A stretch of DNA of 62,412 nt, counting the filler, from an uncultured Planctomycetales bacterium (GTDB lineage: Bacteria; Omnitrophota; Gorgyraeia; Gygaellales; Profunditerraquicolaceae), in assembly GCA_964487475.1 (NCBI GenBank). It is 5 parts of 5 records of this genome, joined end to end, with 100 filler letters (N's around TTAATTAATTAA, not from the genome) between each part and the next. Parts side by side here need not be neighbours in the genome. Positions count along the whole stretch, not along the records: positions 1 to 16,968 come from CAZAPM010000022.1; positions 17,069 to 31,947 come from CAZAPM010000023.1; 3 more parts are not named here. The stretch is one strand, 5' to 3'. Each line of letters opens with the position of its first letter. Within the stretch, counting starts at the first letter, position 1. The notes beneath the pieces were generated by a model. The model made no database searches and had not been told where the DNA came from. It was given only the letters and a program-made list of their open reading frames with translations. The position numbers and the translations under genes were made by a program. This document shows, piece by piece, positions 3-31,947 of this stretch.

Positions 3-245
3 GACAGGGCGCCGCCGTATCGTCCCGCTGCGCGCGCGACCTTCGCGTTCCAGGTCCTGGTGAACGATATCTTCAGGCATGAAGCCGTCCATCACCGCGG
101 GGTGACCGCGGAAGAGCAGGCCATCTCCGCCAGCATCGATTTCTTCCGGAACGATCCTGACGCGTTCCTGGCGCTGCGCAACTGGGCCCGCCTGTTCGGG
201 GTGAGGCTGCATAAATCCTACCGTGACCAGCTTGATCAGCTGGAG
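3..245 (+). repeat. HExxH linker module copy 1 (5'-truncated)
   Basis: RAPPY...FAFQVLVNDIFRHEAVHHRG...E..AISASIDFF...LALRNWARLFGVRL...Y. Confidence 0.92.
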
Positions 246-3200
246 ATCGCGCAGAACCGCAAGGATGTCCTTTACCTGGATTCGGTCAGGTTCAGCGCGG
301 AATACGAGCTTTATCATGAGGCCAAGTTCGGTCTGGGTAACGGCCGGATCATGTCCCGTTCGGCGGCTGAGGAGCGGCAGTATGGCTCCACTTCCTGGCC
401 CATGACCTTCGTGAGCGGAGTGTTCAACAAGCCGGAGGCGAACGCCTCCGAGCTGGTCAACGTCACGAACTGGCTGCCGCTGACCTTCCGCACGCAGATC
501 GCCGGGGATTACGGATGCTGGTTCCAGGTGGACCGGGGCCTGCTGCCAGAGTATCGTATCTCCCTGAACATGCGCCATGGGGTGATGGAAAGGGATATGC
601 GCTGGAGGGATGACAAGGGGCGGGAGGTCCGTATCCATATCCGCCGCATCGTCAGCCAGGCGAGGGAAGATATCGCGGCCATCGAATATACGGTCGTCCC
701 GCAGTTCACGGGAAGTATCGAGTTCGAAGCCGGTCTGGATGCCGCCATGTTCAACCGCAGCGAAGCCATGGTGCGCAAGCATCTGGAAGTCATCTCCAAG
801 GGCCAGTCTCAGGGCGCAGGCATATACCTGACCGCCAGGACCGCCGAATCGAAGATCGCCGTCGCCGAAGCCTCCCGGCTGTCGGTGTTTGCGGATGATG
901 TCCCGGTATCCCTGCAGCCGCAGGTGCGCGAGGAGCAGGAGAGGGTTTTCCAGACCGTTTCCCTGCCTGTCAAGGCCGGCCAGGAGATCAGGGTCGAGAA
1001 GGTGGTCAGCATCCTCACTTCGAAGGAGACCGGGATGGACGCTCCGGCTGAAGTCGAGCGCGTAGCCCGGGAACATGCGGCATCCGCGCCTGCCTTCGCC
1101 GCGCTTTATGACGAGCATGCCCTGGCGTGGGAACGCATCTGGGATAATTCCGGCCTGACGGTGGAGGGGGATCCTCAGGTGCAGATGGCGGCCAACTACT
1201 GTACGTTCTCCCTGTTGCAGTCCGCCCGGGAGGGCGAGGAGCTGGCGAATATCGGCGCGAGGACCTTTGGAGAACATTACAAGGGGCATACCTTCTGGGA
1301 CACGGAAATATACATGCTCCCGCTCTTTACCTATACTCAGCCCAAGACCGCGCGTTCCCTGCTCATGTACCGGTATCACTGCTTAAGCGGCGCCCGCGTC
1401 CGGGCCCGCGCAGAAGGTTTCCAAGGCGCGAGGTTCCCCTGGAGAAGCGGGATGGCCCGAAAGAGCGCATCCGGAGCGTATGAAGGAGGGGAGGAGCTTA
1501 CCACACATGCGATCCGCGATTTCGAGATCGGCCCGATCCCCGGCGAGGATCTGACCGGCAGGCTCGAGATCCACGTGAACTGGGATATCGTAGTGGCGGT
1601 GAAGCGTTATTTCGAGGCCACCGGTGATCAGGAGTTCCTGGAGGATTACGGCGCGGAGCTCATGCTGGAGATCGCCCGTCTGGCCGCCAGCCCCGCGTAT
1701 ACGGTGTGGAACGAGTCCCGCAGGTCGTACGATACCCGCAGCCTTGGACCGAACGAATGGGGAGAGAAGGACGCCGGCGCGGAACACATCCCCGGAGTGC
1801 GCAACAACGCGTATAACAACGTCATGACCGCGTTCACCATCTTTACCGCTTTGGAATATCTTCAGAAGATCCCCGCGGCCAAGAGACAGGCTTTGCTGCA
1901 GCGCTGCGGGATGAGCGAAGCGGAGTTCGCGGAGTTCGAATCCCGGGGTCAGGATATCATCCAGAAGATCTATGTGCCGTACGACCCGCAGACCAGACTG
2001 ATCTTTGAATCGGAGTTCTTCCTTGACCGCAAGGCCATAGAAGGGTTCCTCAAGCCGGAGATCCCCTGGTATGACAGTAAGATCCGTAACGAAGTCCTGA
2101 TGCATTTGAACGGCGCTCCGGCCAGCAGTTATCAGGTCGTACGTCAGCCCGACACCATGATGCTTTTCGTGCTGCGGGAGCTCTTCTCCGATGAGTTCAA
2201 CGGCATCTTTGTGCAGCGGTTCGGCCGCAATATCTTCGATGACGAGCATCTGGAGAAAAACCGGCAGTATTATACCCCCAAGACCTCCGGGGAATCCTCC
2301 CTGGTGTTCACCGCGGTGTGTATCTACGAGCTTATGTCCGGGCATCTGCGTAAGGCCATGGAAGCGTTCCTTACCGGCGTGCGTATCCTGGGGGAGACCA
2401 GCCGTCAGAAGGTCGGCCGCCAGGGTATCGCGTCCGCTAACAACGGCGGGGTGTTCTACGCGCTGGTCAGGGGCTTCGCCGGCCTGCAGATCTCGGAGCA
2501 GGGCATCCGCGTCTCTCCGGTACTGCCCGAAGGGTTTACCCGGATCGGTTTCAAAGTGCATTACCGCGGCGTGCGCATCGCCTTCAATATCGCGGCGGAT
2601 CGGATCACCGTCACTCCGGAACTCCTGCCCGGTTCCCGCGGGGAAGCTCCGGAGGCCATCAGTATGTATATGTACGGCCAGCAGGTCGAGGTCAGGGTCG
2701 GCCGGGAGAACGTGTTTCCCGTCGGCGCCAAGAGCATCCGCTTCGCGGAACCGGACCTGGCGGTGCTGGCGACCCGTTTCAATGAATTGCTGGCGACCCT
2801 GAAATCCCTGCACGTTTCGGCGAAGCTCACCGATCAGGCAAAGGTCAGCCTGCGCGAAGGCGTACGGGTCGTCCGTGAGCACCAGGCGAACCAGGCTTCC
2901 TGCCACTGGTATGTGTATGACACGCTGGCGCTGCTCCTGGAATCCCACGTCCTGCCCTGGCTCGGCGAAGGTAAGGCCTTCGATCAGAGGCTGCTGTCGC
3001 ATGTGCTTGAGAGCGTCGAAGGGTTGATGGTCAATGCCCGGCATACGGTGTACCTTAATAATGTGGCTAATTTCTTCAAGCGCGAGCGGGCATACGAGAA
3101 GAGCCTGATGGTGCTGCGGATCGTGACCTCGATCGACGACAACAATACCGATGCCTTGAACACCATGGGGTATATCTACCTCTTCCAGGGGAAACGGGAC

Positions 3201-6200
3201 AGGGCGGAGTGGATCTTCCGCCGGGTGCTCTCCATCGATGCCTGGAACATGGGCGCCAAGAACGGCCTGGCGGATATGACGGAGGAACTGCGCTGGGTCA
3301 GGCCTTTCCCGGGAAAAGAACCCTTAAGCCGGGAAGGTGTTCGGACCGAAATTGACCGTTGCGGCGGATTGCAGCAGGAAACCTTTGCGGCGGTAGCCGC
3401 GTCCTCCGAGGAGGCGCAGCGGGCCATGCAGTATATGCGCGGGCTGGGCGATCACGAGGCCGCAGGGTTCCTGCAGTTCATCGCCGACGCCGGATTGATC
3501 CGCGCCGGGCCCGTTCCCGGCATGCTCGCGGGTGTCTATCAGCACCCGGAAGCCATGGAGCAGAAGGTGGTGGTGCTTTCCACCGCCGATCCCGCCTTCG
3601 ATATCCCCGCAGAAAAAGCCGTCAGCCTGATCTGGCTGGTCAGCGCATTGCTGCACCGCAAGGACAGCGAAAAGAGAGCCGCCGAGTACCTCGCGTCGGT
3701 CTCCGTCACGTATACCCCGAGCGCGCTGCATGCGGTAGTGGCGCAGGCGCAGAAGTTGCCGGCGGAGGCATTGCGGGCGGTGTGCGCAAAAGTATCCCCG
3801 CAGGATGCGGCGCTGCTGGATCATCCCCGCCAGCCCCTGGAAAAAGACGCCACTTCCCTGGTGATCATCAATGCCAGGTTGTACCCTTCCTTCAGCGCGA
3901 TCATAGAAGAGCTTAAATACCTGAAGACCCTGGGCGTACGGAAGGTGCTGCTCATAGGCTCGTTCCGGGAAAGCAAGCTCAGCGAAAAGTACGGGAAGGG
4001 CGATAGCGATATCCGCACGCAGGGAAAGACGTATCTTTATTTAAGCCGCGATCCGTCCGGCCGCATCGTTTCCGTGGTCTGGAACTGCGAGGACCCGGCC
4101 AAGCCGTATATCCCGGCCACTGCGCCCGGGGAGCTGGAGGGAAGTTCTCGCGGTACCATTATCTCCGGCAAGGGGGATAAGGACTTAAGCGCCGCGGCAT
4201 TTTCCATCCCGGACTATGAATTGAGCCCGGTGCTGGGCGGCCAGGAGCAGTTCGCGCCGCTGATCGCCCAGGCCCAGAGCATGGGTATCGATATCTTCCT
4301 GGATTATGTCCCGCACAGCACTTCCGTCGATTCTACCTGGCTGCTGGATGAAACGCTGCAGACGGGTGAGGGATACTGGTACGTATATAAGGACCTGCCC
4401 GAAGATCTGCAGCGCCAGCTCAGGGAGGCCGGCAACGAGGAATCCCTGATCGCGCTTTCCGATAAGATCCTCAAGGAGAATCCGGGGTATTTCCTGCATT
4501 ATTCCACGAAGCTCGGCAGATGGATATTCCTGGTCCTTTCCCGGGACGCCACCATGAAACCGCTGGGCCTCTTCTTCAACGATCTGCAGGTGCTTATAGA
4601 TATCACCAACCCGGATGTCCGCCACGCCCTGAGCAAGGTCGTGGTGCGTATGGCGGAGTGGGGGGTCAGGGGCGTGCGCGTGGATTGCGCGCAGGCGGTG
4701 GTCTTAGGCCTGCACGGCCAGAATCTCGGGTTCATCAACACCTGGAAGGACCATCATCTTACCAATCCGAATCCTCACGGGCAGTGGGAGTTGTACGCGG
4801 AGGCGGTCAATGCCGTCAGGATGGTCACCCCGGATTTCGAGTTCTTCGGGGAAGCCTTCTGGTTCTTCAACGAGCTGGAATCGTGCGGGTTCAACAGCCT
4901 TTACCAGCTGCATGTGTATAACCTGCTGCGCCGCAAGTCGGATATCCCCGAGCTGCGGCGTTATCTGATCCGCACCTCGGACCAGGAGCAGTCGCACCGC
5001 TCGCACGGCGCGATCAGCCACGACGATAACCCCAACTACCGTTTCGAGCGCCGGGGCAATCCGCAGGCTGCGGCGCGCCGGTTCCTGAACCATTCCCTGT
5101 TCATCGCCTCCATTCCCGGCCGGGTCATCTTCCATGACGAACAGCTGGGCCACGGATATCTTATCGCCGCGACCAACCGCAGGCTGGTGCTCGATGACGT
5201 TCCGCATCCCGAGGTGCGCGCCTCCTTCGCAGAGCTTTTCTCCCTGGCAGAGGAGCCTCTGATGCGCAAAGGCGGGTTGTACGTGCTGCAGACCTCCCAG
5301 CCGCAGGTGCTGGCGTTCGCGCGCTACACCCGCAGTAACGTGGCGATCGTGGTATGCAACCTTTCCGGATTCGTGTCACGCACGGATATCGGCAGCATCG
5401 GGCAGCGCCACAATGTTTCCTGGGATGATATGAAGGGATTATTCGAGATTCCGGCGGAGGGTGAAGAGAGGCTTTCCCTGCAGCGGGAGTTCGATACCCT
5501 GCTTAAAGAAAGCCCGCTGCCGGAGGCGTTCAAGACGGATCTGCTGGCCTATCTGCTCAAGGTACTGGAAGGGGAGACCGTCCGGGACAGGATACCGCTG
5601 GGCGATGCCGCATATCAGCTCGGTATCCACGATCGGGAGGCGTATTACGCCTTCATCGACCGCCTTAACGGCGAGGTGCTTTTGCGCAGCGGCGCGGAAC
5701 TCCTCTCCGAAGGGCTCTATGTCGAGCTTCCGCCGCATACCAGCCATGTGTTTCTGTTGCAGGCCATGCAGGACCGGCAGCAGGAGCTGCGCTGGATGCG
5801 TATCCGTTCCGGGGGGAAACCGCTGTCTTTGGAGGATGTGTATATCCTGATGCAGAAGTTCGGAGTGGAATTGAACTTTGCCGCCAAAGGCGATGCCGCC
5901 AAAGCCGAAGCGCTGAAGTACACGCTCAAAGCGGTCGCATCCGCGGAGGAGGCCTCCCGATTGCTGGCGGCGGCAGTTCCTTGCGCGTACCCGGCAAGAG
6001 TGTCGGCAGAGTATGCCTCTTTGGGGGCGCACGCCGGGCAGCAGGATGTGGTACGCTATTTCGAAGCCGCAAAGGCGCAGTTCGGCCTCAACTATGCGTT
6101 TACCCCCATGACCGTGACCGGGAATGTGGCGGAGTATGACGAGATCCTGCACCGGATCGATATTCTCGAGGGATTCGCTTCCCGGGCTCCGCCGTACGAA

Positions 6201-9200
6201 CCCGGCACGCAGCGTACGTTCATATTCCAGGCAGTGGTGGATGACATCTTCCGTCATGAATCCGTGCACCAGCAGGGTATAACCGACGAGCCTCTGGCCC
6301 GCCAGGCCAGCCGGGAGCATTTCTCTTTGCGTTCAGAGTCTTTGATCGCTTTCCTGCAGGGGGCGGAGGAATTCGGAGTGGAACTTTTCGAGGTCTACCG
6401 TAGCGAGCTGGCGGACCTCCTCTACAGATATATAGGTATCTCTATGGGTGGAGGCAAGGTGGCGGTCGCGTTGTTGAACGGTTCGCAGCAGATCGTGGCC
6501 GGTCCCCTGGAACTCCGCTGGGAGGCTGATCCGAGGTTCCAGGGGGAGAGCATCAAGGACGTTTCCCGCGCTCCCATGGTGATCGAGGTGATCGTCGATT
6601 TCGTGAAAAGGCTCATGAGCGGCCGCAGCGACCTCCTGGCATCGGTGAGCGCCGGATTGGCCGGGCCTGTGGATAAAGAGCAAGGGATCTTCGGGCCGAG
6701 CGCGCAGTTCAGGACCCCCAACCTTCCTTTCGATAATTATCCTTTCGTCGCGGAGCTTCGTAAGTCCCTGCAGCAGGCGGGTGCCGGAGATATCAAAGTG
6801 GTGATCTGCAACGACGCCGAAGCGTCCCTCAACGGAGAGACCTTCTCGCCTCTCGGTTCCCTGGCTGACGTACAAGACGGATGCATCGTGATCATCGGCG
6901 GAGGCATCAATGTCGCGGCCAAGAAGGACGGAAAGATCTTCGAGCCGGTCAAAGAGGCGGGGCATAACATCTTCCAGACCAGGGGCTCGGACGAAAAGGT
7001 GCATTATATCTGGAGGGGAGAAGAGAGCCGGGGCGGGCATCCTATCGAGTTCGGGAACACTCCGGAGGAGATCGGCAAGAAGTCCGGAGTGGCCGGGCTG
7101 GTCTATTCTCAGTTCGTCGAGGAGTACGGGGAAGGGCCCCTGGCGCAGCAGTCCTTCTGGTCCCATTTCCCGGGGTATCCTTTTATGAACTGGGCCGGCG
7201 GCATGCGCGATTTCGAAGACAGGGTTTCCGGCAGGTCCATCACCCGCCGGCTCCAGGAAGAGGTCGCACAGGTGGTTGCAGCCGGCGCGGCCCATCCCGA
7301 GTACGCGCATTATTATTCCCTGCGGCAGCGCTCCGAAGATCCCCAGTTCGCCGGGAAGATCACCATGGTGCTGAACGAGGAAGCGAAGGCAGGCAATCCG
7401 GTCGCCGTACGCTGGATCATCTCCGTTTCCCGTGAGATCGGGGAAGCGCTTGCGGCGTTTGCGGCCGCGTACCCTCAGGAGGCCTTTATCCGCCGGATGG
7501 TGCTGGTATCCGGTGTCAACGAGAACCTGGGTAAGGGCGTATATGAACATGCAGGGGAGGCGGAGGATATTTTCATCAAGTACGTGCGGGCTGCGGTCAG
7601 GGATGAGCTCACGGGATATTTCGGCTTCTCGCCTGCCGATGCCGCCGCGGTCGCGGAGGGTGTCCTGCGGTCCCGCCTGACCTATGAAAGGGAGTTTATC
7701 TCCTATCAGCCTTCTGCAGCGGAGAAGGGGGAGTTCCTGCGGGAGGCGGCGCGGGTGCGTCCGGCGAAGCAGGCTGAGCCAATTCGCCTGGCTGCCCTCG
7801 TATCGAAGCGCGCGCAGGGGATCAATGTGGCCCTTCCGGTGGTATCTGCGGGCATGACCACCAAATTATATAATCAGGCCACGGGGAACACGGTGTCCGT
7901 GGCGCAGTGCCGGGATGACGCCGCCACGCACGTGCGTTTGATGGAGTGGCTGGCCGCGACGTACGGCCTGGAAGTGATGTATTCCTTCATGCGGCTTTCC
8001 CTGGTACCTGCCGCTATCGCCGTTGCCAACGGACATCCGAATCCGATCAGGATCATGGATGAGTTCAACGAGGGGGTGGAGCGGTTCCTTACGATAGGGG
8101 ATATCGATATGGACAAGCTGTCCGTCCCGGAGCCTCAGTCGAACGCATTCTTAAGGCCGCAGCTTTCCATCCTGAGAATGGCTGCCGCCGCGCCGGGGAT
8201 GCAGGGCAGGCATCTCATGGCGTTCGTGCCCGGGCCGATCTCCCTGGTGGGGATGCTTATCGGCGCCGAGGATATCACGTTCGCGTATATGGATTCCCCG
8301 GATTCCCTTCCTCCGGCATTGGCGTACGCCTCCGAAGTGATCAAAAGGCTTGCGCTCGCGCTGCAGGAATCCGGAGCAGAGGTGATCTGCATGCTCGAGC
8401 CGACCATGCAGATCGTTCCTGTCCCGCTGGCCAAGCAGGCAGTGCCGTACATCAACGGGATATTCGCCGCGGTGCACGGCAAGGGAGCGCAGGCAGTGCT
8501 GCATGTGTGCGGAGCGACCAAGCGTTTCTTCAAGGTGCTCTCTCAGGTTGACGCGGACGGGTTCAGCCTCGATGCGGATGTGTCTTTAAAGGAGTTCGCC
8601 CAGGTGTACGTTGCGGAGTGCCCCGGAAGGAGTGAATCCGTGGTGGTCCTGGGTAATTACAGTACGTTCTCATTGCGGTCGGAATCCGCGGAGGAGACTG
8701 CGCGCAATGTCTCATCCATGATCGCGGCGTCCGCCGGGTTCCCCGAGGGAGCGTTGTACCTGCCCGCGTCCGGCTGCGAGATCAGGATGCTTAAGACGGG
8801 CGCCGACGGCCAGATCGACGCGGCGGCAGGGTTGGTCCAGCTTAAGGCGCTGGTCGAAGGGATGGCCCCGGCAGCGGCAAATCCGGCGTATCCCGCCGGG
8901 CTGATCGCGCAGGAAGTCTGCCTGATCGCTACCACGGGGGCGGAATCGCTGCCGGTTGAATACCTGGATGCCGCAAAAGCGGCGTTTGACCTGGAGTATG
9001 AGGTGGTGGATGCCACCTCTACCGGCGCGATCGCCGAGTTCAATAAGGCCACCGGCAAGGTCGATATCCTCAAGGAATTGATCTCCCGGGCGCCGCTGTA
9101 TCTGCCGGCCTCCAGGTCCAGCATGCTCTTCCAGGTGCTGATCAACGATATCTTTGCCCATGAGGCAGTGCATAGCCGCGGCATCGATGACGAGCCTTCC

Positions 9201-12200
9201 GCGATCGCCGCCAGCCTGCAGGCGTTCCAGGCGCGTCCCGTGGACCTGGAATCCTTCTATTGGGCGTGCGCGAATTTCGGTATCGCACTGAACCCGGCGT
9301 ATGCCCAGCAGATCAGTATGCTGCTGGCCCGGCAGGCGACCGATGCCTTTGTGATCGACCATATCTCGTCCTCCCTGGTCAACGGCGCGGCATTCGTCTT
9401 CGATATCGACAACACCCTTAACCGCGGCAGGATGATGCCTCTGGACGAGGATGCTGCAGAGCTGCTGTATAAATTCATCATCATCGGCCGCAAGATCATG
9501 ATCATCTCCGGCCGTTCCGCCAGCGAGATAGAGATGGGGATCCTCGGGCCCCTGGTCCGCCGCCTCAAGCAGAGCTTCATCGATTTCGAGGTCATGGTGT
9601 ACACTTCTGACGGAGCCGGCTGCTTCAATCTTTCCCGCAACGGCACTCTGGTGCTGGATTACGAGTATTCCGCCCCGTTTGCGGAGTGGGAGATCAACGA
9701 GATCCGGGCTGTGCTCGACCAGCGCGGAGCGGAGCTCGTTGCGCGGCATAATCTGGAAGGGTTCTCGCTTCCCTACACCGAGATCGATGCGCATAAGCTT
9801 AAGATCGGGTTCAGCCCTTACGGGAAGAAGAAAGAGGCGGAAAAGGAATACTATTTCGAGAAACAGCCGGAGCTCGCCGCGCAGTATTCTCCCGCACGCC
9901 TCACCAGGAAGCAGCTGGGTAAGGAGCTGCTTGAGGCGATCAACCAGCGGGGTGTTACCAATATACGTTTCGAGGTCAGCGGCAAGACCACCATCGGGTT
10001 CGTGCGCAAGGACGCGGGCAAGAAGAAAGCGATGAGGGATATCCTGAAGAAACAGTCTACCGCGGTCTATTTCGGTGACGAAGTAGGGAGCGGCAACGAC
10101 CGCACGATCGGGGAGATGGTGGTTTCCGAACCCCGTTTGATGGTCCTGGCGCTCGATCCGCAGCATAAGGATATCCCGGATGGAGTGTTCTGGATCGGAG
10201 GGATGGTCGAAGGGACTTTGCGCGTGTTGCGCAGCGCCTATGAGAAGTCGAAGGCGGAGCTTCCGGATTCCAAGATCAAGGAATTCCTTCGCCGCCGGCT
10301 CGGCACTGCCCCCGGCGCTCCGATCAGCTCCCAGACCCTGGATCTGCTGCAGAATACCTTCGAATATGCCCTGGACGCGGCGCAGAGACTGGAGTGCGTG
10401 GAGGAGCTTTGTCAGATCGTGAGATTGCCTTCCATCGCCATCTCCGCTCCCTTGAAGAGCGAGGTTCCTTCTTCGGGGCTGCCGGAAGTCATCCTGCTGC
10501 ACCTTCCGGTGGTGGTGGACGTGGATGTGCATTTCACCAAAGTGCGCGATGAGCTGGTATTTACGCATGTGGACCATTTCATCGGCAAGGAGGACGCGCA
10601 GGCGGGTATCTTGAACCGTCTGGGCAATGACGTGCTGATGGTAGGGCCTCCCATGCCGAACGCGGATGCTTCCCGGGTTTCGGGGTTGAGCATCTCCCTG
10701 ATCTTCAGGGAGGATAAGCCGAAGGGTAAAGAGGTCAGGCTGCGGGCGGTCAACCGGGTCATCTCTCCTTCGGACGCGGATGAGTTCCTCGGGCACGGCC
10801 TGGATTCCCTCCTGCTGCACAGCCAGCCCGGGCAGTTCGTGCTCCTGGGAGGCCGTTTTGCCGAAGGCGCGAACGCCGGATTCTACGCCGAGGTCATCAA
10901 GAAGCTGCGGTCGAAGCTGAAGGTGGTCTTTGATTGCAGCAGCCAGCACACCAAAAGCGATATGGAGATCATTGCGGGAAGCGGCCCGTATCTTTTCAAG
11001 GCGAACCTCAAGGAGTTCTCCCGCATCACCGGGGTGGACGCGGATACTTTGCGTCAGGACCACGATCAGCTTAAGCGCCTGGCCGAGGATTTTCTGGTTG
11101 CGCATCCCATGCAGGTGTTGTTGATCTCGATGGACCGGGACGGCTGCCTGGTGGTGACCAAAAAGAAGGTAGTGCATGCGTATTATCACCAAAACCACCT
11201 TCAGCAGCAGATACTGCACGACAATGCCGCAGGCAACGTGCTCCTCGGTGTCCTGGTCAACAGGCTTACGGCGAACTACTCAATCGAAGACGCGTTGAAG
11301 TTCGCGGTGGGAGTGGCGACCGCGCACTGCTGCGTGCCCAAAGGCACGCCGTACGATCCTTTGACCGCGGCCGAGCTCATGGGAAGGATCAAGGTGGAGG
11401 TGGATGATTCCATCTTCGGGAAAGTCGCCCGGGAGGTCCGCGCGTTCATCACCCGGACCATGGGGCTGCCTTTTGACGCGCCGATCACCGCGGACGTGCT
11501 GCAGGCCATGGACTGGAAAGTGAACTCTTTGCTCGGCCCCGCACAGAACGACCTGGCGTTCGCCTGCTGGCGGATGCTCCAGAAATCCCTGGGCAAGGCG
11601 CCCGTGGTCAGGCTGGTGGGAGACCGCCATAACGAGCATCTGCCGCCCATCTCCGTGCTGGTATATCCCGATACCTTCAACTCCGAGGTCATGCTCGACC
11701 TTAAGCCCGACGGGACCTTCGAGGTGTTTAGCATCAAGCACACACCCGGAGGCCGCATCAATTCACTGATCATCCTGAAACTTCTCGGCCGCAGGCTCAA
11801 TGCGCTCGGGTTCGTGGGCAAGGCCGGGTTCGTGAGCCGGGAGCTGCGCGAGCACCTGCAGGCCGCGCTCATAGATATCAGCCATTTCGTCGAGACGGAA
11901 GCGGATTCGAGGTATTATCCGGTCATATTCGACCGTGTCTCCGGAAAATCCGCCCGCATGAGGGCTCCGGGCATGGCCATTACCGCCGAGGAGATCGCGG
12001 AGTTCGACCGCAAGATCATCACCGAGGTGGTCGAATATATCGAGGATTCCCCGAACGGCAAGTTCCTGCTGGTGGGCGGCCGTATCCCTTACGGCGCGAA
12101 CGAAGGGTTCTACGTCAACCTGATCAAGGAAGCCAACGCCCGGGGGATCAAGGTCATCTACGACTGCAGTTTGTCCGTGACTCCCGAGCAGGCCGCGGGG

Positions 12201-16968: not shown

Positions 16969-17068
16969 NNNNNNNNNNNNNNNNNNNNNNNNNNNNNNNN
17001 NNNNNNNNNNNNTTAATTAATTAANNNNNNNNNNNNNNNNNNNNNNNNNNNNNNNNNNNNNNNNNNNN
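16969..17068. other. Artificial contig spacer
   Basis: N44-TTAATTAATTAA-N44, with stops in all six frames. Confidence 0.99.
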
Positions 17069-20000: not shown

Positions 20001-23000
20001 TCCTGCTGGAAGGCCTCCGGCAGATCGGCAAGCCTATGGCCGAAGGGCTGAACACCTTCGATGAATTGAAAACGGCTTTGGAGGCGGGTTCCCGCAAGAC
20101 CGTGGATGTGCTTTTCGCCAAGAATAAGGAAGGTAAACCCGTGCACCCCGCGGCTACGGAAGTCTTCGAGATATTCCTGCAGTTCCGCAGCCGGGTGCAG
20201 GATCCCCGGAAATGGGTGGGGATCTACGATATCGGCTCGCCGGTGTACTGGTGGAGGCATCGCCGCCCCGCAGAGCTCTATCAGGAAAAGATCCAGATGC
20301 TCGCCGACATGACCGGAGAGTGGGTTGAGGTCAACGAGAAGGGCGTGTTCAAGGTCAAGCCGGCGGCGGCAGGCAGCGCGCTGGCCCAGGAGGCCCGGGC
20401 GATGCGCGATTTCCGCGGTATCATGAACACGCCGGTAGCCAATTGCGTGCTGGGTTCGGTGCGGGTCGGGGCGGACGGTTCCTATGTCGATCCCGTGACG
20501 GGCAGGGTAAGACGGATCACTCTGGCCAAACTGCACAAGGGGATCACGGTCGACGGGGTGTACCTGAAGGATGCCGTGGTGCAGTACAGCTATCTTCTTC
20601 CCGGAAGCCGCGTGACGGCAAGTGTGGTGAATAATTCGTACGGGAAATTCGATCTCGTGCAGTCATATGTGGAAGCGACGCATGCCGGCGATCTCAAGGC
20701 GTTCCGGGCGATCTCCTTCAATGTGGTGGAATCCCGGCCATTGTCCATGAGGAACACTTCGGTGGCCGATGTCTTCCGTCCGGAGATCAGGGATCCGCAC
20801 TTCGCCCGCGGCCAGACCAGGGTGTGGGCCGGGTTCGAGGTGGACGGGAAATCCGCAGGCAACACGGTGCTTTCCCAGAATGCGTTCAGTTTCAATGAAT
20901 TGCGCTCCTTCTCCAATGCGGTCGAGGCCAATGAGCAGGTACGTCAGCGGGTGCTCCGAAGGATGTTCGGGCTCGCCGCCAAAATGCTCTCCCGGTATAC
21001 GCCGAGCGCGTATCCGGCCACGATCGATGATGCTTTGATCGATCCGGCAAAAACACGGGAGGGAGTAAGGTATTTCGAAGCGGCAAAGCTTGCGTTCGGC
21101 ACTCCGTACTCGTTCGTAGCCAGAACCGTGACCGGGCAGGTCGCGGAGTATAACGAGGTGGACCGCTGTATCGATATAATGACAACCTTATCCGCGAGAG
21201 CGCCTCCTTTCGATCTGACCGATCCCCGTTCTGTCGCCTTCCAGATCCTGGTCAATGATATCTTCCGCCATGAGACCGTGCACCACCGGGGGCTGCGCCA
21301 GGAGCGCCCCGCGATCGCCGCAAGCATGGAGTATTTTGACACCCGTCTGGGCGAAATGGGCATGATGCGCAGATGGGCCGGATCCTTCGGGGTTCGTTTC
21401 GACGAACATTATTCCCGGAGGATGAGAAGGTCCGCCTCTCGCGTCTTGCAGACAGCGGTGGCCATTAACGGCGAATTCGCTCCGACCGCTGCCATGTCGC
21501 TGGCGAATGAGATCTGCCGGCTGCAGGAGGCCGACCCGAAGTATCAGGTGAAGGTCGTATTCGCGACCGGCGATACCCAGGTCCCCATTCTGCATTTCCT
21601 GTCCATGGATCCCCGCATCGACTGGTCTCGTGTCCAGGCGTTCCATCTCGATGAATATGAGGGGGTGCAAAAAGACGATCCGCATTCCTTTGCCGCCTAT
21701 CTGCATAAGCACCTTTTCTCCCGGGTAGCCATTCCCGAAAGCAATATCCATTACATCTGCGATTTTGTCCGGTCCCTGAACGTTACCGGGGAGATTACTT
21801 CGGAGCAGCTGGCCGGGTACCCTGCGGCGCTCGAGGCGCTCGGCGGTGCGGATATTCTTATCCTCGGGATCGGGCTTGACGGTCATCTGGCGTTCAATGA
21901 GCCTCCGGATTTCTCCGGATTTGCCGCGCATATGCAGCGGGTTGCGCTTACCGAAAGCACGCTGGCGGCGAACGAGAAGAACTATCCCGGTATCCGTGCC
22001 CGTCCGTATGCGTTCACCATGGGTATCGCGGATATCCTTAAAGCCCGCCGGATTTTCTTCTTCGCGAGCGGCCAGAGCAAAGCGCAGATCGTGCGTGCGG
22101 CCCTGGAAGGAGAGGTCACGCAGGATGTTCCGGCATCAGTGCTGCAGACCCACCCCAGGGTGCACGTGGTCCTGGAGATGCAAGCCGCTTCCCTTCTGCA
22201 CACCGAATTTGCCTGGTCCCGTCCTTATGGCGCGGCCTGCGGAGTGCTGGCCATCGGTGGCGCAACGGCCGCGGCGGGATGGGTTGCCGGGATCGTGGCG
22301 GCAGTGCTGCTCGGAGTATTTTTATTTTCGCCGGTTTTGAAAGCGGTTTCACCCGTAAAATGGCATCTCAGGCGTTTTTCCAGCCATAACGCAGAGGTCC
22401 GTCACCAGGCGGCGCTCGGGATCCTGTCACTCGGGACCCGGGCACACGCGGAACTGCTGCATGCGCTCGCAGATCCCAACGCCTATATCCGGGAAGCAGC
22501 CATCTTCGCGGTGTCCCGATCGCCGGTGAAGGATGCGGCGTACCATATCGAATTTCTCCTCGATGACGGCTCTCCCATGGTGCGGGCGGCGGCGCTGCAG
22601 GCGCTGCGCGCGATGGGCGGATGGCGCAGCGCGTTCATCCCCGAGTTCCTCTCCCGGGTCCGCGCGAGGGTGCCTGAGGACGAGGCGTTAAGCCTGCTGC
22701 ACAAGGCTTTGAATTTCAAGGAGCGCGGGATCGAGATCGAAGTGGTGGAGACCGAAGGGCCGGTAAGGGCCGTGTGCAGCGCCTGCCAGATGGGGATCGG
22801 TTTCGATGACGACGATCACATCCGCGCGGGAAAATGTTCGGTATATGACCGGGACGGGAATCCGCGCCTGCATCCCACCTTCCAGGTCGTGGCGGCAGGT
22901 ACCCTTACCAAGAAGGCTCCGGGTACGGCTCCGGTGGCGTATGACGAGTTGATCAACCTTATCCGCAGTGTCAAGGATGCCCGTCAGGCCGAATACCGCG

Positions 23001-26000
23001 TGCCCGAAGCGATCATCGCGCACATTCTTTCCACCCCGTCCTTCGTCAGTTATGAGGCCATTGTCCGGCACCTGCGTTCCGGAACGATACGTCTGGTAGT
23101 GGACAATCCGGTTTCCGCGGACCCCTACCTGTATGACCGTATGCGCGGGGAGATGGGCTTGCTGTGCTTCATTACTCCCGAGTATAAGCTGGGGAGCAAA
23201 TATTACTACGGTCCCGAGTATGCGGCTTTGACGGATAGTGACCGCAAGCAGTGCCAGTTCCATTGTTTCGCGGTGCACATCACGCAGGCGACGTTCAACC
23301 GCTGCGTGGAAAGGGCCCAGGGAGGCAGTATTACCGCGTTCCGTCCGGGAGGCAAGGAGTTCCTGGCGCAGATCTTCGTGCACGAATGCACGGAGAAATT
23401 CATCCCGCCCCTCAAGAACATCACCATGCACCGGTTCGCCTGCATGCAGGAGATATTCTTCGCCACCGAGGACGCGATCGACCGCGGGTTAAGCGACCTG
23501 GATATATTCTTCATCGAGCATGCCCAGGCCATGGCGGAGAGGGAGAGCGACCAGGGCGGAGTGTGTACCGACTATCTGGAGAGGCTGCGGGAAGAGTATG
23601 ACCTCACGCATGACCTTTCCATCGGAGCCTTCGGAAAGTTGCTGGGGGTCGACCAGACCGCGGGTCTTTTCAAGCGTGCGGATGTGGTGGCGGTCAAGAC
23701 CGCTCCCGGTAATCCGAACATCAAGTCTGCAAGAAGAGAGGATTCGATCGCCGGGATCCCCGCTGCGGCTCAAAAAGAGATCGTTCCCATCGGGGACGAG
23801 GTGGTGCGCGCGCTGCGCACCAGTTCCTTCGGCGTGGCGTATGCGCTCCTGCTGCAGATGATCGAATCGCAGCAGCTCGTCTTCTCGGTGGATGCGCTGG
23901 ATATGGACCATGCGCAGGCCCTGCTTTTCCCGATAAACAATGAGCCTATGGGTCTGGTGGCGTATCTTTCACAGAGCAAGGAACAACGTTATGAGATACA
24001 CCTTACCCGGAGGCTTTTCGAGCGTCTCAGCGGTTTCGAGCGCATCGCGTTCCTCTCCGGGCTGGTGGCGTACCTATTCATCGAGGCGTTCTTTCCTCTG
24101 ATCGAGGGCAGCAAGCATACCCTGGCTTCACTCCATGCGTTCCTGTTCTCTACCGCCGAAGCCAAGAGGTTGGGGGTGAATTCTATCGATCACATGTGCC
24201 TGCGGTATGCGGCTTCCGAAGAACGGCTCGACTTCAAGTATTTCTATTATCTGCTTTCCATATACGATGTGCTGCGGGACCCCTCGGGCAAGTTCAAGCG
24301 CGGGCTGTATGAGTTCCTGAGCGCCATGAAGATCGCCAACAGTAATATGCTCCCGATCTTTCGGCCGGAGGACATCCTGCCGTGGTACCGGTACCACCTC
24401 GAGTATGAATTGGGCAACGGTGCGGTCGCCAATCCCGCCTCCATCGAAGACCTCATCGTGATCAGCCGGCAGTTGGAAGGCCTGGCGGAGTCGAATTCGG
24501 TGGTGCGGGAGCATCTCCAGCCGGACCAGAAACGATACCTGCTTAAGTTCTCTTATAAGCCGGGGCCGCAGGAGGATCCGGTCACGCTCTATCTGCCTTC
24601 GGAGGTGAAGCGTTTCACCGAGCCGGACAGCGGGTTCGTGCTCGAACAGAAGGTGCGCGCGCTCTCCGAAAGCGACCGGCAGACCATCCTCTCGCACGAA
24701 GGAGCGATCCGGAAACTGCAGCAGGATCGCACCGCGCTTGACCCCGAGCAGAAATTGCAGCGTAAGTCGTTGAACCATCAGATCGCCGACCTGGCCAAAG
24801 CCATCGTTACCATCATGCATATGCCTTTTATCGAGTACCTTATCGAGAGGATCCGCATCTCCCGTCAGAGCTCGCCCTCACAAAAGTGCCTGGTGGTGGG
24901 GATGATGGCACCTTCATCGACCGGTAAGACCACCTGGGCGGCCGAGCTGCGCAACCAGTTGCATAAGCACAATATCAAGGCGGAGGTGTTAAGTTCGGAC
25001 AGCTTCCTTTATCACGGTGAAGGGTTCCGTTTCTCGAACGCTGATTCCGGTACCCGGGTCTATTCTCTCGAGGGGGTGGCCATGTATGACTCTTCCTCGT
25101 ATCTCAAGGCTATCAAAAGGCTTAAATCGGGCCTTCCGCTCATGCCTCCCCCGAACCAGCATGAAAGTAACGCCGCGAGCGTCATGGTCCAGGAGCAGGA
25201 GCAGGAGCGTTTTTCGGACCTGCAGGTATTGATCCTGGAGGATCCCTTCATGGGGGTCAACGAAGAGATACTCGAGCAGATCGATCTGTATGTGGGCGGC
25301 GCGTTTGACGACGGGATCCTGCGTCTGGAGCGGCGCCTGGAGCGGGATACGCAGCCGCTGGATGAGGGCGGGACCCGCGGCATGCTCTCCGGGGACGTGA
25401 TCGTTGATTTCGCCCGGAAGATGTTCGTGGAATCCCGGGATGCGACCCGGCATACCATCCTCAATCCGGATTTCACCCATGCCATCTGGCAGGCGGATAC
25501 CGGCAGGCTCTTCGTCAATAAAAGCCAGCGGTTCATCCAGTCTCTGCTTTCCCATGACCGTAAGGTGTCTATCCGCAGGAAACTGGCCGCCGAACTCGGA
25601 AAACCGGCGATCAGCAGCGTGCTGCAGGATCCTTCCCTGGCGGTCCTCATCGACCTGGATGCGTCCCTGACGCTGCCGGGCCAGGAGATCACCGATGAGG
25701 GGGCGAATGCGCTGCTGCGTATGCTCGCCGCCAAGGTCAAAGTGGTCATCCTGACCTCCAACTCCTTCAAGGCGGTCGAGTCGCAGGTGATCCGGCCTCT
25801 TTTCATCAAGGAGATGGAGCACCAGTATGCGGAGCAGCTGATCGTGCTGGCCTGCAACGGCACCCAGATATGGAAGTGGTCGGCGGCCAAAAGCGAGTTC
25901 GAACGGGTATATCTTAAAAAATTCACGCCCGAAGAAGTGGCGCGGATCATGGAGGTATTGTCGAAGGCGGTTTCGGATTTCAGCCTCATGTATTATGCCC

Positions 26001-29000
26001 AGGAGTACCGGGGAGCGGGAGAGTATCCGGTGGATGAGTTCATCGAGAACAGGGATAACGCCCAGATCGTACTGCAGGTGCTGGGGAAGCACGCGACTCC
26101 CGAGCAGAAGGACCAGTATACGCTGCGGGACAGGGATGTGCGTACGGATATCGAGGCGTTCCTTTTCCGGGCCTGTCTGCCGGCGTTCGTGAAGGTGGAA
26201 GGCCGTACTTCTGTCGACATCAACCCGAAAGGGGTGGACAAGGGCTTCGGGATACAGGCGCTCAAGGATCAGGAGGGGATCTCCTCCTCCAGTATATTCT
26301 ACATCGATGACTGGTTCAGCGGCAAAGGGGACGGCACCGAAGTGATCAAGCGCGGGGTGGCGGTGTGCGCTTCGGTGGGGGATGAGCTTCCTTCCGATAA
26401 GAAGAGTCAGGTGCGTTTCATCCGCTCGGAGTTAAAGGGGCCGGAAGGTGTGGCTACGATCCTGGAACTGGCGTTGGAGGTGATCGAAGAGAAGTCCGAA
26501 GACGGGGCGCCGGGATATTCCGGCAGGCTCTCGGAGCGTTTCGATCCTACCTATAGAGTGGCCTCGCCGAAGGACGCGGCCCGCTATTTTGACGATGCGG
26601 CCCACGCCTTCGGCCTGGGGTATGAGTTCGTCGACAGTACCGTAAGCGGGATGCTGGCGGAGTACGATCCGGTCAATAGAAGGGTGCGCATTGTAAGACA
26701 TCTGGCGGACAGGGCTCCTCCGTACGCGCGCGGAGCCGTTTCCAGTATCGCCTTCCAGGTGCTGGTCAACGATATCTTCCGTCACGAAGCCGTCCATCAC
26801 TCGGGTGTGCTTGATGAAAGCCTGGCCGAGTCCGCCAGTATCAGTTACTTCACTACCCACAAAGAGCACCTGCTGTATTTCCATAACTGGAACGATGTGT
26901 TCGGGATCGAGCTGCTGCCCGGATATCAGCGTAAGATCCGGCTGCTGGAGGGCGCAGTGTTCGGGGGAGCCCTCTTCGGGTATAATCTTGCCGCGGTCTC
27001 TACCCGTAAGGAAAAGCTTTCCGGGGAGGCTGAGTCCCGGGTGCATAAGATGACCGCCTGGGCCCTGGCCGAGGACAGGATCGTCTCCTTCGCTTTCGGC
27101 GGATACCGCATCGATACCCGGCGCAAGCAGGGGGTCAAACTTTACGGCATGCACGACACGCTTTCCGGCGCATCCGTCGAGTTCATGGCCGAGCGCGGCG
27201 CGACCATCGTTTCTTTCACCATCCATGGCACGGAGACGCTCTATTGCCCCGACCTGGAGAAATCCGGCGGCATTCCGGTACTGTGGCCTTTTGCGAGCCG
27301 TATCCGCGGGGGCAAATTCGTCTTCGAGTCCCGGGAGATCGATCTTAACGGGGTCCCCGGGGCCAAGTCAGACGGAAAGGGGAACGTCTATCACGGCATG
27401 GTGCGGTATGAGCGCTGGATCCTCGAGGCCGCGGGGATCGACGGCAACGGGGTGTTCGCCACCTTGTCATTCTCTACCGCGGGATACCCCGAGCTGGAAG
27501 CCGCGTTCGGAAAAGCGAAGGTCTTCCTTACCTACCGGCTTCAGGATTCCCTGCTTTCCATAAAAGCTTCGGTCGAGAACAGGGGAGGGACGTCGTTCCC
27601 GATGAGCTTCGGATTCCATCCCTGGTTCCTTACTCCCGCAAAGGCGGACTGGATCTTGAGTATTCCCGCCAAGGCGCATTGGGTGGCGCAGGACCTCTTG
27701 CCTGACGGGAGCATCGAGCCTGCGGGTGAGCTGCGCCGGCCTACGGTCCTGGGCAACCGCACCTTCGATGATGTATTCACCGACCTGGATTATTCCGGAG
27801 AGACGGCGGTAAGCCGGCTCTATGATCCCTCCCGCGGATTGTTGATCGAGGTCGGCCAGGATAAGAATTTCCCCCATGAAGTGCTCTATGTGCCGGCGGA
27901 TAAGGATGTGATCTGCATCGAGCCGCAGACCTCTTCCGCGGATGAGTTCAATCTTCACGCGCAGGGGATCCTGGATGCTTCTCCTGTGGTCCTTGTGCCG
28001 GGAGGGGTATGGCAGGGAGAAATGTCCATTTCCGTGAAGCAGGGGACCTATGCGCTCGCGAACCTTCCTTTGGTCAAGGCGGCGATCTTCGATCTGGACG
28101 GAGTGATCGTCAATACCGAGAAACTGCACTACTTGGCTTTGAAGAACGCGTTGCGGGGGGAGGGGATCTCCTTGAGCTGGCAGGAGTACCGTACCAGGGT
28201 TTCCGGCCACAGGAGCGTCGAGGTGCTGGGATCGTTGCCGCTGGATGAAGCGGCGAGAGCCCGGGTGCTGGCGAAGCGCAGGGATAATTTCGGCGCACTG
28301 GTCAGGGCCCAGGGCGTGGAAGTGTATCAGGACGTGCTGGGAAAGATCCTCGCGCTGCGCGAGATGGGTATCCCCTGCGCACTGGCCTCGGGAGGAAATG
28401 CGCCCCAGGTGAAAATGCTGCTGGAGGCGGCGCGCCTGACAGGATTCTTCCAGGTGATCGTGACCGGGGATGACGTGCCCAGAGGAAAGCCGTGTCCCGA
28501 TATATTCCTTAAGGCGGCGCAGCTCCTGCAGGTGCATCCGGCCGAAGCAGCAGTGTTCGAGGATGCGGTCGCGGGGATCGAGGCGGCGAAAGCCGGCGGG
28601 TTCGGTCTGGTGGTCGCGCTATCCCGTTTTGCGGAAGATGCCGACCTGAGAGCCAAGGGCGCGGATATCGTGACCCGGGATGCCTCCTCTTTGAGCCTTC
28701 GTGAGCTCTTCACCCGGGTGACCGCTCCCCGTGTGGCAGCGGCGTTAACGCGCGGAAGTTTCAAGGCGGCGGTATTCGATTTGGACGGAGTGATCAGCTC
28801 CACTGCCAAGCTGCACTTCCTGGCCTGGAAAAAGCTTTTTGAGGAGATCATCGTTATGGGCCGTGAGTTTACCCTGGATGATTTCCTTACCTATGTAGAC
28901 GGCCGTCCGCGTTTTGAGGGATGTCTGGCGATGCTTAAAGAGGCCCCCCGTACCCGCGACGCATTCGCGGCGCTGGAGCGGTATATCGATCCGGCCAAGG

Positions 29001-31947
29001 AGAAGGATGCCTATGTGCAGCTGACCGAGCCGCAGCAGGCCTTGATGGACCAGCTGACTGCCTGGGGGAACCTGAAGAACCGGTATTACAATGAAATGCT
29101 CGATCAGGCCCAGGGATTCCTTTCGATCTTTCCGGGCGTGGCAGAGGTATTGAATACTTTGACCAAAGCGGGCACCTTAACCGCCGTGGCCTCATCCAGC
29201 AAGAATGCGCCAAGGCTGGTGGAAGCGCTGCACCTTGCTCCGTTCTTCCGGGAGGTGCTTTGCGGCCTGGACCTCGGCAACTACAGTGTGCTGCTGCGCC
29301 GCGTGATCCGGGGCAAGCCGGCTGCGGATATGTTCATCGAAGCGGCTTTGCGCCTGGGAGTGCTGCCGTGTCATTGCGTAGGGTTCGAGGATGCGCCGCA
29401 GGGAGTCGAGGCGATCAAGGCGGCACACATGCTTGCGGTCGGTATCGACAGCGAAGGCAAGGGGCTCATCAAGTGCGCGGATCTGGTGGTTACCGGATTG
29501 GCGCAGCTGGCGGAGTATTTCAACCGGGCAAAGGGTTTTTCGTATCCTGCCAGCATGGCCAAGATCAAGGCGGAAGACCGGGCTCCGACCCCCGCGGAGC
29601 TGGCCAAGATCAATGCGGCCTTCGCCGCTGAATGTGCGGAGGGAGAGGCCATCCAGCTGGACGCCGGGAAAGTAGTGATGCGTTCGGATATGGAATCTCC
29701 GGCCGAAGTGAATATGGAGACCATGACCCTCTTTGTCCATCCGGTCTTTCTCGAGCATGCCCCCGCGGAGGCGCTGCGCGTGGTGCTGCAGGGGCATGAG
29801 CTCTTCCATCTTCAGGGTAAGACCGAAGATGAGGCGGAAGTACTGACGATCGCGTATTTGAAGAAGCGCGGGATACTGGTCGAGCACCTGCGGTTCCTGC
29901 AGCATAATCAGTTCGGGCTGCGTCCCATGCCGCTGTGGGAATCGAAGCTTATCCGGCAGATCGACGCGGTGCCGGAGCGCGAGCGGACCGAGAAGGAGGA
30001 GAAACTCCTGGAGTGTATCATCTCCCAGAACAAGCTGGCGAACCAGTATCTGCACGGCGGAGAGTTCCATGATTTCGTCAGCATCGATCCGATCCTCGCC
30101 GACGGCATATTGAACAGCATGCCCTCCGAGCATAAGGCCCGGGCGAGTTCCGAGCGCCTGTATGACGAGATGGTGGATGTGACCCTGTTGCTGCATCGTC
30201 TGAGAGAAGGCAACGGGCACGTGTTCGTTTCGATCAGCAATCCGTTCGGCGCCCATCATACCGAGTTCATCACGGTGAACCGGGAGCGGGAAGGGATCGA
30301 GGCAGTGACCGCGACCTTTATCTCCGAACAGCTGGGCGGATATATCGGAAGCATCATCTCCTATACCGGAAAGATGGATGAGAATCTGCCTTGCCCGGGA
30401 GTGGAGGTGGCGATCCACGAGGTGTGGAGGAAGCAGGAGGAGACGGTTTCCCCGCTGCATCTCGATGAGGTCAACCGGGTGCGTTTTCCGGATATCTTCC
30501 TGAAAGAGAATGTCGTCGCCCGCCGCAGCCTGCATAACCGCCTGGTGCGTCAGGCGCAGTCCAGGTTCGAGAAGAACCGTCAGGTCAGCGATATCAATGA
30601 GCAGGTGCGAGTCCGTCTGCGCCAGGGTTTTGAGATCAGGGGAACGCCGGATTCCCAGCGTATCGTCAGGCACGGCACCATGGTCAAGTATGCTCCCCGC
30701 GCGGTCGACCATGTGACGTATCCGCTGCAGTACGAGATCGCCGGGGACGAACGTGAATCGCGGGAGGCCCGGGATGCGCTCGAGGCGGCTTTGCGCGAAG
30801 CGGTGCGTAACGAAGCGGCCCGCATCGGCGGTGACCAGGCGGTGGAGAGCGGCCTGCGCGTGCTCGTCGCGGACCTCCTGCTGGAGGCTTCCCTGACCCT
30901 GCCTACCCATGGCCGCATCGTTCCCATGGCGCATTTCCTCTCCACGGTGATCAAGGCCCTGGAGGAGCTCAACCGCAGCGAGGATAACCGCCAGCTCATC
31001 ACGATCGTAACCTCCAGCGTGAACCGTATCTCCAGGGTGTTGTATCCGAACATCGATGCGCGGGAAGTGGAGCTGTCGCAGGAATCTTTACCGCCTGCCG
31101 AGGCCTTCGTGGTGCGCGCCGCAGAAGAGCTCAAGGCGGAGTATGAGGCCCAGATCGCCCGCGCGGAGCAGGAAGGGGATACGGAGACCGTAGAGAGGAA
31201 CGCCTTCCTGATCATTACACTGGATGATATCCCCCGCAAGGTCATCAAGATCATGCGGCAGGGGGTAGGTGACCTCTCTGAAGCGGTGTTCAGGGCAGCG
31301 CAGCCCCTGGTGATCAAGGCGGTCGCTCCCATGCGCACGGAATTCAATAAGATGTTCTATGATGTCGCGACCCTGGCCGAGGAGCTGATGCATACTCTTT
31401 CTTCAGCCGGCCCGGAGGCGGAGATATCCATTGCGGGCGCTCCGGCGAACGCTCCCTTCATCCTGCTGCTTAAGGCGGATATCGCAGGGCTCAAGCAGTA
31501 CGCCCAGCTGCGCAGCCGTTATCCGAACCTGGTCGGCATGGTAGTGCGCACGGGGGTCAAGCATTACGGCATCACCGCCCGCCAGCAGAGGTTCCCTATC
31601 CTCCCCGAGGCCTATACGGTGGTGGAGGGGATCCGGTACTCCACCTGGGATGCGGTCGAGGGCGGGGAGATGGCGATACTCAATACCGAGACCGGGTCTC
31701 TGAAGATCAATCCCTCGGTCAGGGAGCTGCGGGAATCGCAGGAGGAAGAGCTTTCCAGCCGGGCAGTGGCGATCCATGCCGCGCGCCGTAACGACTTGCC
31801 GGTGATGACCAATGACGGCGTGACCATGTCCCTGGCGGTCAATATCGATTTCGCCCATGAGGCAGAGGCGGTGGCCAAGGCTAAAGTGAGCGCCATCGGG
31901 CTTTACCGCACCGAATCGGAGTACGCCCTGCAGGAGGTCATTACCCG
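17069..31947 (+). CDS. Giant multi-enzyme protein, fragment 2 (open at both ends, ~4,960 aa)
   Basis: Stop-free frame across the whole contig. Domain order: beta-PGM C-terminus, beta-PGM, Nudix, nucleotidyltransferase-like, repeat, NagB, hydrophobic segment, HEAT, tandem unknown pair, P-loop kinase, HAD-IIB, repeat, aldose 1-epimerase, two beta-PGM, divergent repeat, PTS Enzyme I. Confidence 0.95.
17258..18060 (+). other. Domain: beta-phosphoglucomutase-like HAD-IA
   Basis: FDLDGVIT.TA.VH..AWK, VDGKSR..G, ASASKN, KP.P..F, VEDAEAGVQAG. Confidence 0.9.
18265..19040 (+). other. Domain: Nudix hydrolase (IDI/YfcD-like)
   Basis: IDIYD..GKVIG...H....LHH...V.AF...GKVLMQ.R...K..FP; canonical Nudix box GGASRGERARDAGKREFREELGI. 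Confidence 0.85.
19090..20990 (+). other. Domain: putative sugar-1-phosphate nucleotidyltransferase-like region with beta-helix-like tail
   Basis: ICVLHDAGSASRCSP resembles the Gly-rich (A/G)GxxxR-P nucleotidyltransferase loop; LKDAVVQYSYLLPGSRVTASVVNNS resembles hexapeptide repeats. Confidence 0.45.
21011..21430 (+). repeat. HExxH linker module copy 6
   Basis: YPATID...YFEAAKLAFGTPY..V..TVTGQVAEYNE...IDI...RAPPF...FQILVNDIFRHETVHH (His codon 21269). Confidence 0.93.
21440..22200 (+). other. Domain: glucosamine-6-phosphate deaminase (NagB)
   Basis: FATGDT, FHLDEY, LGIGLDGHLAFNEP, TMGIADIL.AR, G.SKA, VPASVLQ.H. Confidence 0.92.
22229..22630 (+). other. Hydrophobic Gly/Ala-rich membrane segment followed by HEAT-like repeats
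   Basis: GVLAIGGATAAAGWVAGIVAAVLLGVFLFSPVL, then three copies of L.D....VR.AA...L. Confidence 0.75.
24890..25520 (+). other. Domain: uridine kinase/phosphoribulokinase-like P-loop kinase
   Basis: VVGMMAPSSTGKTT, LSSDSF, VLILED, RLERRLERD...RG. Confidence 0.75.
25640..26490 (+). other. Domain: HAD-IIB (phosphomannomutase/Cof-like)
   Basis: IDLDASLT, LTSNS, CNGT, GRTSVDINPKGVDKGFG, YIDD. Confidence 0.8.
26516..26950 (+). repeat. HExxH linker module copy 7
   Basis: YSGRLSERF...YFDDAAHAFGLGYEFV.STVSGMLAEYD...RAPPY...FQVLVNDIFRHEAVHH (His codon 26783). Confidence 0.93.
27130..28040 (+). other. Domain: aldose 1-epimerase (mutarotase)
   Basis: GIPVLWPFASRI, YHG.VR, FGFHPWF, FDDVF, ICIEPQT. Confidence 0.9.
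28075..29520 (+). other. Domains: two tandem beta-phosphoglucomutase-like HAD-IA
   Basis: FDLDGVIVNTEKLH...GKPCPDIF...FEDAVAGI and FDLDGVISSTAKLHFLAWK...ASSSKNA...GKPAADMF...FEDAPQGV. Confidence 0.9.
29543..29960 (+). repeat. Divergent HExxH linker module (copy 8)
   Basis: YPAS...PAEVN...LFV...HAP...VVLQGHELFHLQG.TEDEA...I.Y...QFG; same motif order but weak similarity (His codon 29795). Confidence 0.6.
30620..31947 (+). other. Domain: PTS Enzyme I (PEP-protein phosphotransferase)-like, C-terminally truncated
   Basis: TGVKHYGITARQ..FP (phospho-His motif equivalent), GEMAILN...G.L.INP, TNDG....LAVNI, IGLYRTE. Confidence 0.8.

Follow-up and report, generated by a model that had tools for sequence, protein, structure and literature searches.

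An embedded gluzincin-like module as a candidate processing protease at the head of enzyme cassettes in an Omnitrophota giant protein

Whether the giant proteins of Omnitrophota, at 30,000–147,000 residues, work whole or are cut into pieces is treated as an open question in the literature on them, and a stretch of DNA from one such bacterium (assembly GCA_964487475.1; a 1.87-Mb genome in 36 contigs, G000 below) bears on it. The window (that is, the whole stretch analysed, 62,412 nucleotides (nt)) consists of five contigs placed end to end, two of which, C22 and C23, encode parts of a giant gene in which a module of ~144 residues with an HExxH motif recurs between unrelated enzyme domains. We tentatively suggest, at a probability of roughly 0.4, that this module is a metal-dependent processing protease heading mobile enzyme cassettes in a giant of the Archaeovorin type.

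The members of the module family in the window all lie on the plus strand. Copy 1 (3..236, HExxH at 78) is cut by the contig start and is followed by a GH65 phosphorylase (288–2687). Copy 2 (5988..6413, HExxH at 6255) comes after an alpha-amylase-like domain (4206–4859) and before a ROK kinase (6429–6983) and a URO-D-like domain (8106–8783), copy 3 (8889..9317, HExxH at 9159) before a HAD hydrolase (9393–10079) and PfkB kinase domains (best stretch 11703–12572), and copy 4 (12645..13073, HExxH at 12915) before a Pfam-dark region and a PMM-like HAD domain; copy 5 (16314..16760, HExxH at 16602), the type to which close relatives belong, directly precedes a HAD domain that runs into contig C15. 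In C23, copy 6 (21011..21427, HExxH at 21269) heads a glucosamine-6-phosphate isomerase/deaminase (21491–22153) and copy 7 (26516..26941, HExxH at 26783) an aldose 1-epimerase (27185–28033) with two HAD domains, and a divergent member of a sister subfamily (29543..29953, HELFH at 29795) lies upstream of a region that ends in a PEP-utiliser domain (31781–31930). A sequence-only reading of this DNA had reported seven clear copies: HExxH is present at all seven places and six of the copies are full, the one at 3 being a C-terminal half only. The spacing it gave, 1,000–2,000 amino acids (aa), agrees with the 967 to ~2,060 aa measured within contigs; its statement that copies are never adjacent holds within the window and fails in relatives, in which degenerate copies stand back to back (G109, P0010, P0011 and P0017).

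The seven copies share 36–59% of their amino acids pairwise, and 20 columns are invariant. HExxH with a Glu seven residues past the second His, which had been claimed for every clear copy, is found in all seven against 0.04 expected from composition, and the Glu belongs to an ExxA motif that is likewise present in 7/7. The divergent copy at 29543, in which this Glu stands one residue earlier, was recovered independently by a profile built without it (independent E value 4e-8 after iteration; best reversed-sequence decoy at least 18) and by hhalign (E 1.5e-5, probability 79%).

In a structure model of copy 7, HExxH occupies residues 91–95 within a helix (76–96), and the ExxA motif stands at the start of the helix at 102–115, as in the definition of gluzincins by an (E,H)xx(A,F,T,S,G) motif on the helix after the HExxH helix (as given in PMC7213743). 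The model further has an N-terminal helix, a three-stranded sheet and two C-terminal helices, as in the gluzincin/minigluzincin fold. The best explanation is that the module is a predicted free-folding minimal gluzincin-type metallopeptidase domain, in which, to judge from ligand spacing and fold, the His/His/Glu ligands would converge on a divalent metal; strands at model residues 4–6 and 132–134 may place the two termini close to each other, as insertable domains have them. The zincin-type metal site proposed from the motif thus sits on a predicted zincin fold. Structural alignments to the minigluzincins selecase/projannalysin (PDB 4qhf, 4jix) and proabylysin (4jiu) give identities of 9–14%; a sequence search of the PDB returned no match with A1 and only three chance-level matches with A2, and matches of the fold to viral proteins were weak (best E 0.019). 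In profile searches of Pfam and PHROGs no family matched more than 2 of the 48 members, and every such match lay below the cut-off, which bears out the impression that the module belongs to no named family. The minigluzincins selecase/projannalysin and proabylysin are stand-alone archaeal proteins of 104–112 residues, whereas the module is embedded, repeated and longer, gave no sequence-level match to them above chance, has an N-terminal YP[A/G] segment, RAPP loop and C-terminal helix pair of its own, and exists in ligand-swapped and dead forms.

How far the site is kept differs between branches of the family. Among 113 non-redundant members, 4 are incomplete, and the other 109 comprise 36 with HExxH (30 of them with a downstream ExxA-type motif), 23 with HExxE, 9 with HExxxH, 5 with HDxxxH, 3 with HE only and 33 with no HE, a plausible full site being kept in 61. 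A downstream HxxA is present in 22 of the 23 HExxE members and in none of the 36 HExxH members, so that in the former the second His and the third-ligand Glu have exchanged positions, with the catalytic Glu kept; because most swapped members fall in one group, this represents few events rather than 22. In a quick tree of 104 rows and 145 columns, from which short and incomplete rows were omitted and in which many forks are open, the window's clade has a Shimodaira–Hasegawa-like approximate likelihood ratio (SH-aLRT) support of 96 and an intact site in 12/13 rows.

Several of these observations weigh against a universal protease role: the HE core is missing from 33/109 members, so that conservation of the site is a matter of clades and not of the whole family; one 17-row group is degenerate throughout; and the RAPP loop is more conserved than the catalytic Glu. 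They are what would be expected under the strongest rival of the processing-protease reading, namely that the module is a mainly non-catalytic zincin-fold spacer or handle, with a structural or vestigial metal site, that insulates the folding of enzymes or binds a chaperone, an export part or other copies through the RAPP face. Whole degenerate groups persist and form tandem arrays, structural residues too are better conserved than the catalytic Glu, the termini, if close together as the model may imply, would suit a spacer, and ArdC offers a precedent for a zincin whose activity is dispensable (as described in PMC7213743). We nevertheless consider a mere spacer doubtful, since the site is kept in 12/13 rows of the window's clade and the compensating His/Glu swap rebuilds the site around a retained catalytic Glu, which a purely structural role does not need. 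Clusters or tandem pairs of dead modules with conserved motifs of their own occur in L055 (G109:C88), P0010, P0011, P0017, P0021 and P0046, and suggest that a second, non-enzymatic use of the fold may have arisen.

The setting of the module could be questioned on the ground that repeats or long frames are mis-joins: the window is concatenated and the gene fragmented. The sequence-only reading had indeed described one continuous polyprotein over 3–29960, which does not hold. Between C22 and C23 lies an artificial, non-biological linker, N44-TTAATTAATTAA-N44 (16969..17068), with further ones at 31948–32047, 46655–46754 and 58856–58955; because the linkers are artificial, any frame, spacing or neighbourhood across them is unreal. 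C22 (bases 1–16968) is a 5,655-aa internal fragment of the giant gene in one plus-strand frame (3..16967) and C23 (bases 17069–31947) a 4,959-aa internal fragment, likewise in one plus-strand frame (17069..31945); both are open at both ends. No overlap was found between C22 and C23, and C23 has no settled place in the gene. C22 shares 55 nt with the reverse strand of C15, and the giant frame continues there in the 16,838-aa frame of C15, itself open at both ends. The end of C5 adds two frames, with a scaffold gap between them and running on into C36; further pieces are a 7,804-aa frame on C16 and three small contigs with a frame right through; a ~57-residue tandem repeat straddles the break between the end of C15 and the start of C16. 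The pieces total ~55,700 aa and presumably belong to one gene; the longest run joined by overlaps is 22,475 aa, C23, C28, C33 and C34 being unplaced. HAD domains repeated at 74–78% DNA identity (17258–17905 of the window, C28, C33, C34 and the start of C15) are a likely cause of the fragmentation. Such an artefact in the repeats or the long frames is nonetheless already largely refuted and hardly credible: the copies differ from one another by 41–64%, contig pieces were found at 99% identity or above in runs of three studies (one of which may be the source), the relative P0006 matches C22 colinearly for 2,100 aa (64%), and relatives carry the module in unbroken frames of up to 81,822 aa.

The locus itself agrees with the Archaeovorin locus as described by West-Roberts et al. 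2023 (10.1101/2023.11.21.568195): secretion/Tad-like genes lie upstream and PilZ and a sugar ABC transporter downstream, and the giant has a C39 domain near its start, GT, NUDIX, HEAT, TPR and PEP-utiliser domains and many membrane helices. No SecA-like domain was found in the 27 chunks of one scan or the 12 of another, C28, C33, C34, C36 and the assembly gaps lying outside both. Among the 80 matches listed for a housekeeping pilus gene, most relatives are labelled Omnitrophota, as are all seven module homologues with a named organism (20 looked up); locus, pilus-gene relatives and named homologues together support the Omnitrophota giant-protein context first proposed for the module. Across 1.84 billion representatives, 52 proteins matched, and genome searches gave matches in 9/61 relatives (counting G000 and one chance match) and in 32/401 genomes phylum-wide (counting G000). 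All 52 matches of the phylum-wide search sit in open frames of 1,371–81,822 aa and none stands alone, and searches with copy 5 of 50,697 phage records and of 72,556 plasmid records were without a match. Copy number varies, with four members in a 68,600-aa giant and seven in one of 24,000 aa.

Evidence that the module heads a cassette comes from the close relatives of copy 5. P0003, P0004 and P0006–P0009 are each closest to copy 5, both overall (57–64%, against 37–48% to the other full copies) and over each of the middle quarters; the first quarter is ambiguous in three of the six and the last in one. Downstream, five of the six continue into the same HAD domain as copy 5 and the sixth ends within the module. 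Upstream they part: P0006 runs colinear to C22 as far as copy 2 (64% over 2,122 columns) and P0008 to C23 as far as copy 6; P0007 and P0009 carry the HAD domain otherwise seen in front of copies 5 and 7, and in P0003 the place is taken by the kinase tail that forms the end of C28. The breaks fall in a short Pro/Ala-rich linker or in the first quarter of the module, and the mobile unit is therefore the module plus its downstream enzyme. In a family-wide flank test (83/113 members with both flanks; 97 non-independent pairs at 45–95% identity), neighbours were kept downstream only in 9 pairs, upstream only in 3, on both sides in 3 and on neither in 82, the control being underpowered; downstream inheritance thus appears weaker across the family than among the relatives of copy 5. 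What stands of the functional punctuation unit first proposed is behaviour as a junction unit with shuffled neighbours. A recurrent ~600-aa Pfam-dark domain follows HAD domains and often precedes the module (19085–21010 of the window; C34, C33, C28; P0003, P0008).

Such shuffling might instead mean that the copies matter chiefly as stretches of homologous DNA, through which recombination gains or exchanges cassettes, the protein domain being tolerated baggage. Synteny does break at modules, C22 starts inside one, C28 ends at the start of one, and contigs of several relatives end in one. This recombination scaffold, also raised by the sequence-only reading, is nonetheless very unlikely: DNA identity between copies is just 70–75% over 100–180 nt, amino acids are conserved while codons vary, breaks lie at the start or in the first quarter of the module and not throughout it, and the contigs of four runs yielded no credible joint at a module.

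C22 and C23 encode sugar/phosphate metabolism (GH65 phosphorylase, alpha-amylase-like, ROK and PfkB kinases, URO-D-like, several HAD, NUDIX, glucosamine-6-phosphate isomerase, PRK/uridine kinase, aldose epimerase and PEP-utiliser domains), and such enzymes work in a cytoplasm. A crude hydropathy scan gave no candidate membrane helix in C22 and two in C23, compared with 25 in C15, 9 in C16 and 19 in the frames of C5, so that the enzyme zone marked by the module is largely free of membrane segments. No copy was found in C15 or C16, and one further copy, degenerate, lies in C5. This setting also bears on the idea that the module is an active peptidase carried as one cargo enzyme among others, with proteins or peptides from prey or scavenging as its substrates and not its own chain. 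A complete site and predicted fold would fit it, many further HExxH-like motifs are scattered through the giants, the giants have been proposed as predation tools (10.1101/2023.11.21.568195; PMC10066038), and the same option is listed for polyvalent zincins (PMC5512222). It is rather unlikely, however, as sugar kinases, phosphatases and a phosphorylase surround the seven copies in a zone with 0–2 predicted membrane helices, and as the copies track cassette starts, where a single copy would do as cargo.

Under the processing-protease reading, the module would bind a divalent metal, be catalytically active and cut the giant precursor in cis or in trans, most probably in the short Pro/Ala-rich linker just upstream of its YP[A/G] start, and the membrane-free sugar-metabolism zone would be released as pieces of module plus enzymes of ~1,000–2,000 residues; site-less copies would be cut by other copies or remain as uncut spacers. 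The modelled fold, the His-His-Glu set with its catalytic Glu in all seven copies, the giant and contig-long frames and the inheritance with the downstream enzyme in close relatives were computed here; metal binding, catalytic activity, self-cleavage and the cut site we infer. MARTX toxins and viral polyproteins likewise turn a long precursor into enzyme pieces with a built-in protease, a single cysteine protease domain in MARTX. By this analogy the giant would differ from MARTX in having many metallopeptidase-like domains, one per cassette, with cleavage putative.

Also comparable are the polyvalent proteins described by Iyer et al. 2017 (PMC5512222), in which one to five zincins (HExxH with Glu, or HExxxH variants) are interspersed among unrelated enzyme domains, as the module is, and for which autoproteolytic release was proposed. 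Those are reported there from phages and conjugative elements with nucleic-acid or conflict enzymes, whereas the module belongs to a cellular giant-gene locus with sugar-metabolism cargo and gave no match in the phage and plasmid records and none above cut-off in PHROGs or Pfam. For the giants, West-Roberts et al. proposed C39 and S8 proteases as processors, with cleavage points unknown, a lack that is said to block structural work (10.1101/2023.11.21.568195). A Lipocone preprint (10.1101/2025.01.14.632903) gives one clause to metallopeptidases in Omnitrophota giants; ‘zinc’ is absent from the main text of the West-Roberts preprint, of a complete-genome preprint (10.64898/2026.06.07.730766) and of Seymour 2023 (PMC10066038), as is ‘HExxH’ from the first, and supplements may list such domains. 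Literature on Omnitrophota with HExxH, or with metallopeptidase, giant or autoproteolysis, gave nothing on the module, with the same proviso for annotations in supplements. The fold, the kind of giant and the analogy are thus known; the domain family, the ligand swap and the cassette-header behaviour are new.

A second, separate zincin-like family (HExxE, then HxxA, then E) has an intact-looking copy at 23045..23617 and a degenerate partner at 23834..24283, both on the plus strand; the pair precedes the PRK/uridine kinase domain. Two copies lie in C23 and two in C28, 13 of 301 genomes of the class have the family, and profile comparison gave no link between it and the module. At ~3400–3770 of the window a segment with a RAGP motif, similar by eye to two segments of C15, looks like a degenerate zincin; this grouping, also made by eye, recruited few further members. 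In the 68,600-aa giant of another genome (G009:C1; L067–L078), the short motif DNGG recurs (15 seen, 0.6 expected) as a possible junction tag; in the giant of G000 it does not rank with the most enriched words. Elsewhere in the G000 giant, C5, C15 and C16 encode LysM, YkuD, M23 and M50 peptidase, superfamily-1 helicase, GNAT, GT2, racemase, alanine dehydrogenase-like, VTC and histidine-kinase ATPase domains. The other three contigs of the window (32081–61896) hold ordinary genes, including glycosyl transferases, radical SAM and B12-binding enzymes, an asparagine synthase-like gene, a sodium-solute symporter, ECF sigma/anti-sigma genes, a pilus ATPase and PilC. A further, separate long frame in G000, which spans at least 1,900 aa and is internally repetitive, extends from C32 into C25.

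A bolder generalization, which we hold to be unlikely as a whole, is that Omnitrophota giants are true bacterial polyproteins of mobile cassettes, each a mini-zincin header plus enzyme, that each header cuts its own upstream linker, that several unrelated mini-zincin families do so in different zones, and that the headers would then allow the mature products of the longest known proteins to be mapped from sequence. At the scale of the module, the question of whole or cut is reduced to a domain of 144 residues whose catalytic Glu and candidate linker can be named, and the family supplies natural controls in its intact, ligand-swapped and dead variants. Should the module not cut, it would still be an unnamed recurrent domain useful for annotating the dark parts of giants. 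As it stands, it is a concrete candidate for cutting the giants into working pieces, and if it does so, it would explain how sugar enzymes of a cytoplasmic type are set free as single enzymes from their fusion in a membrane-anchored giant.

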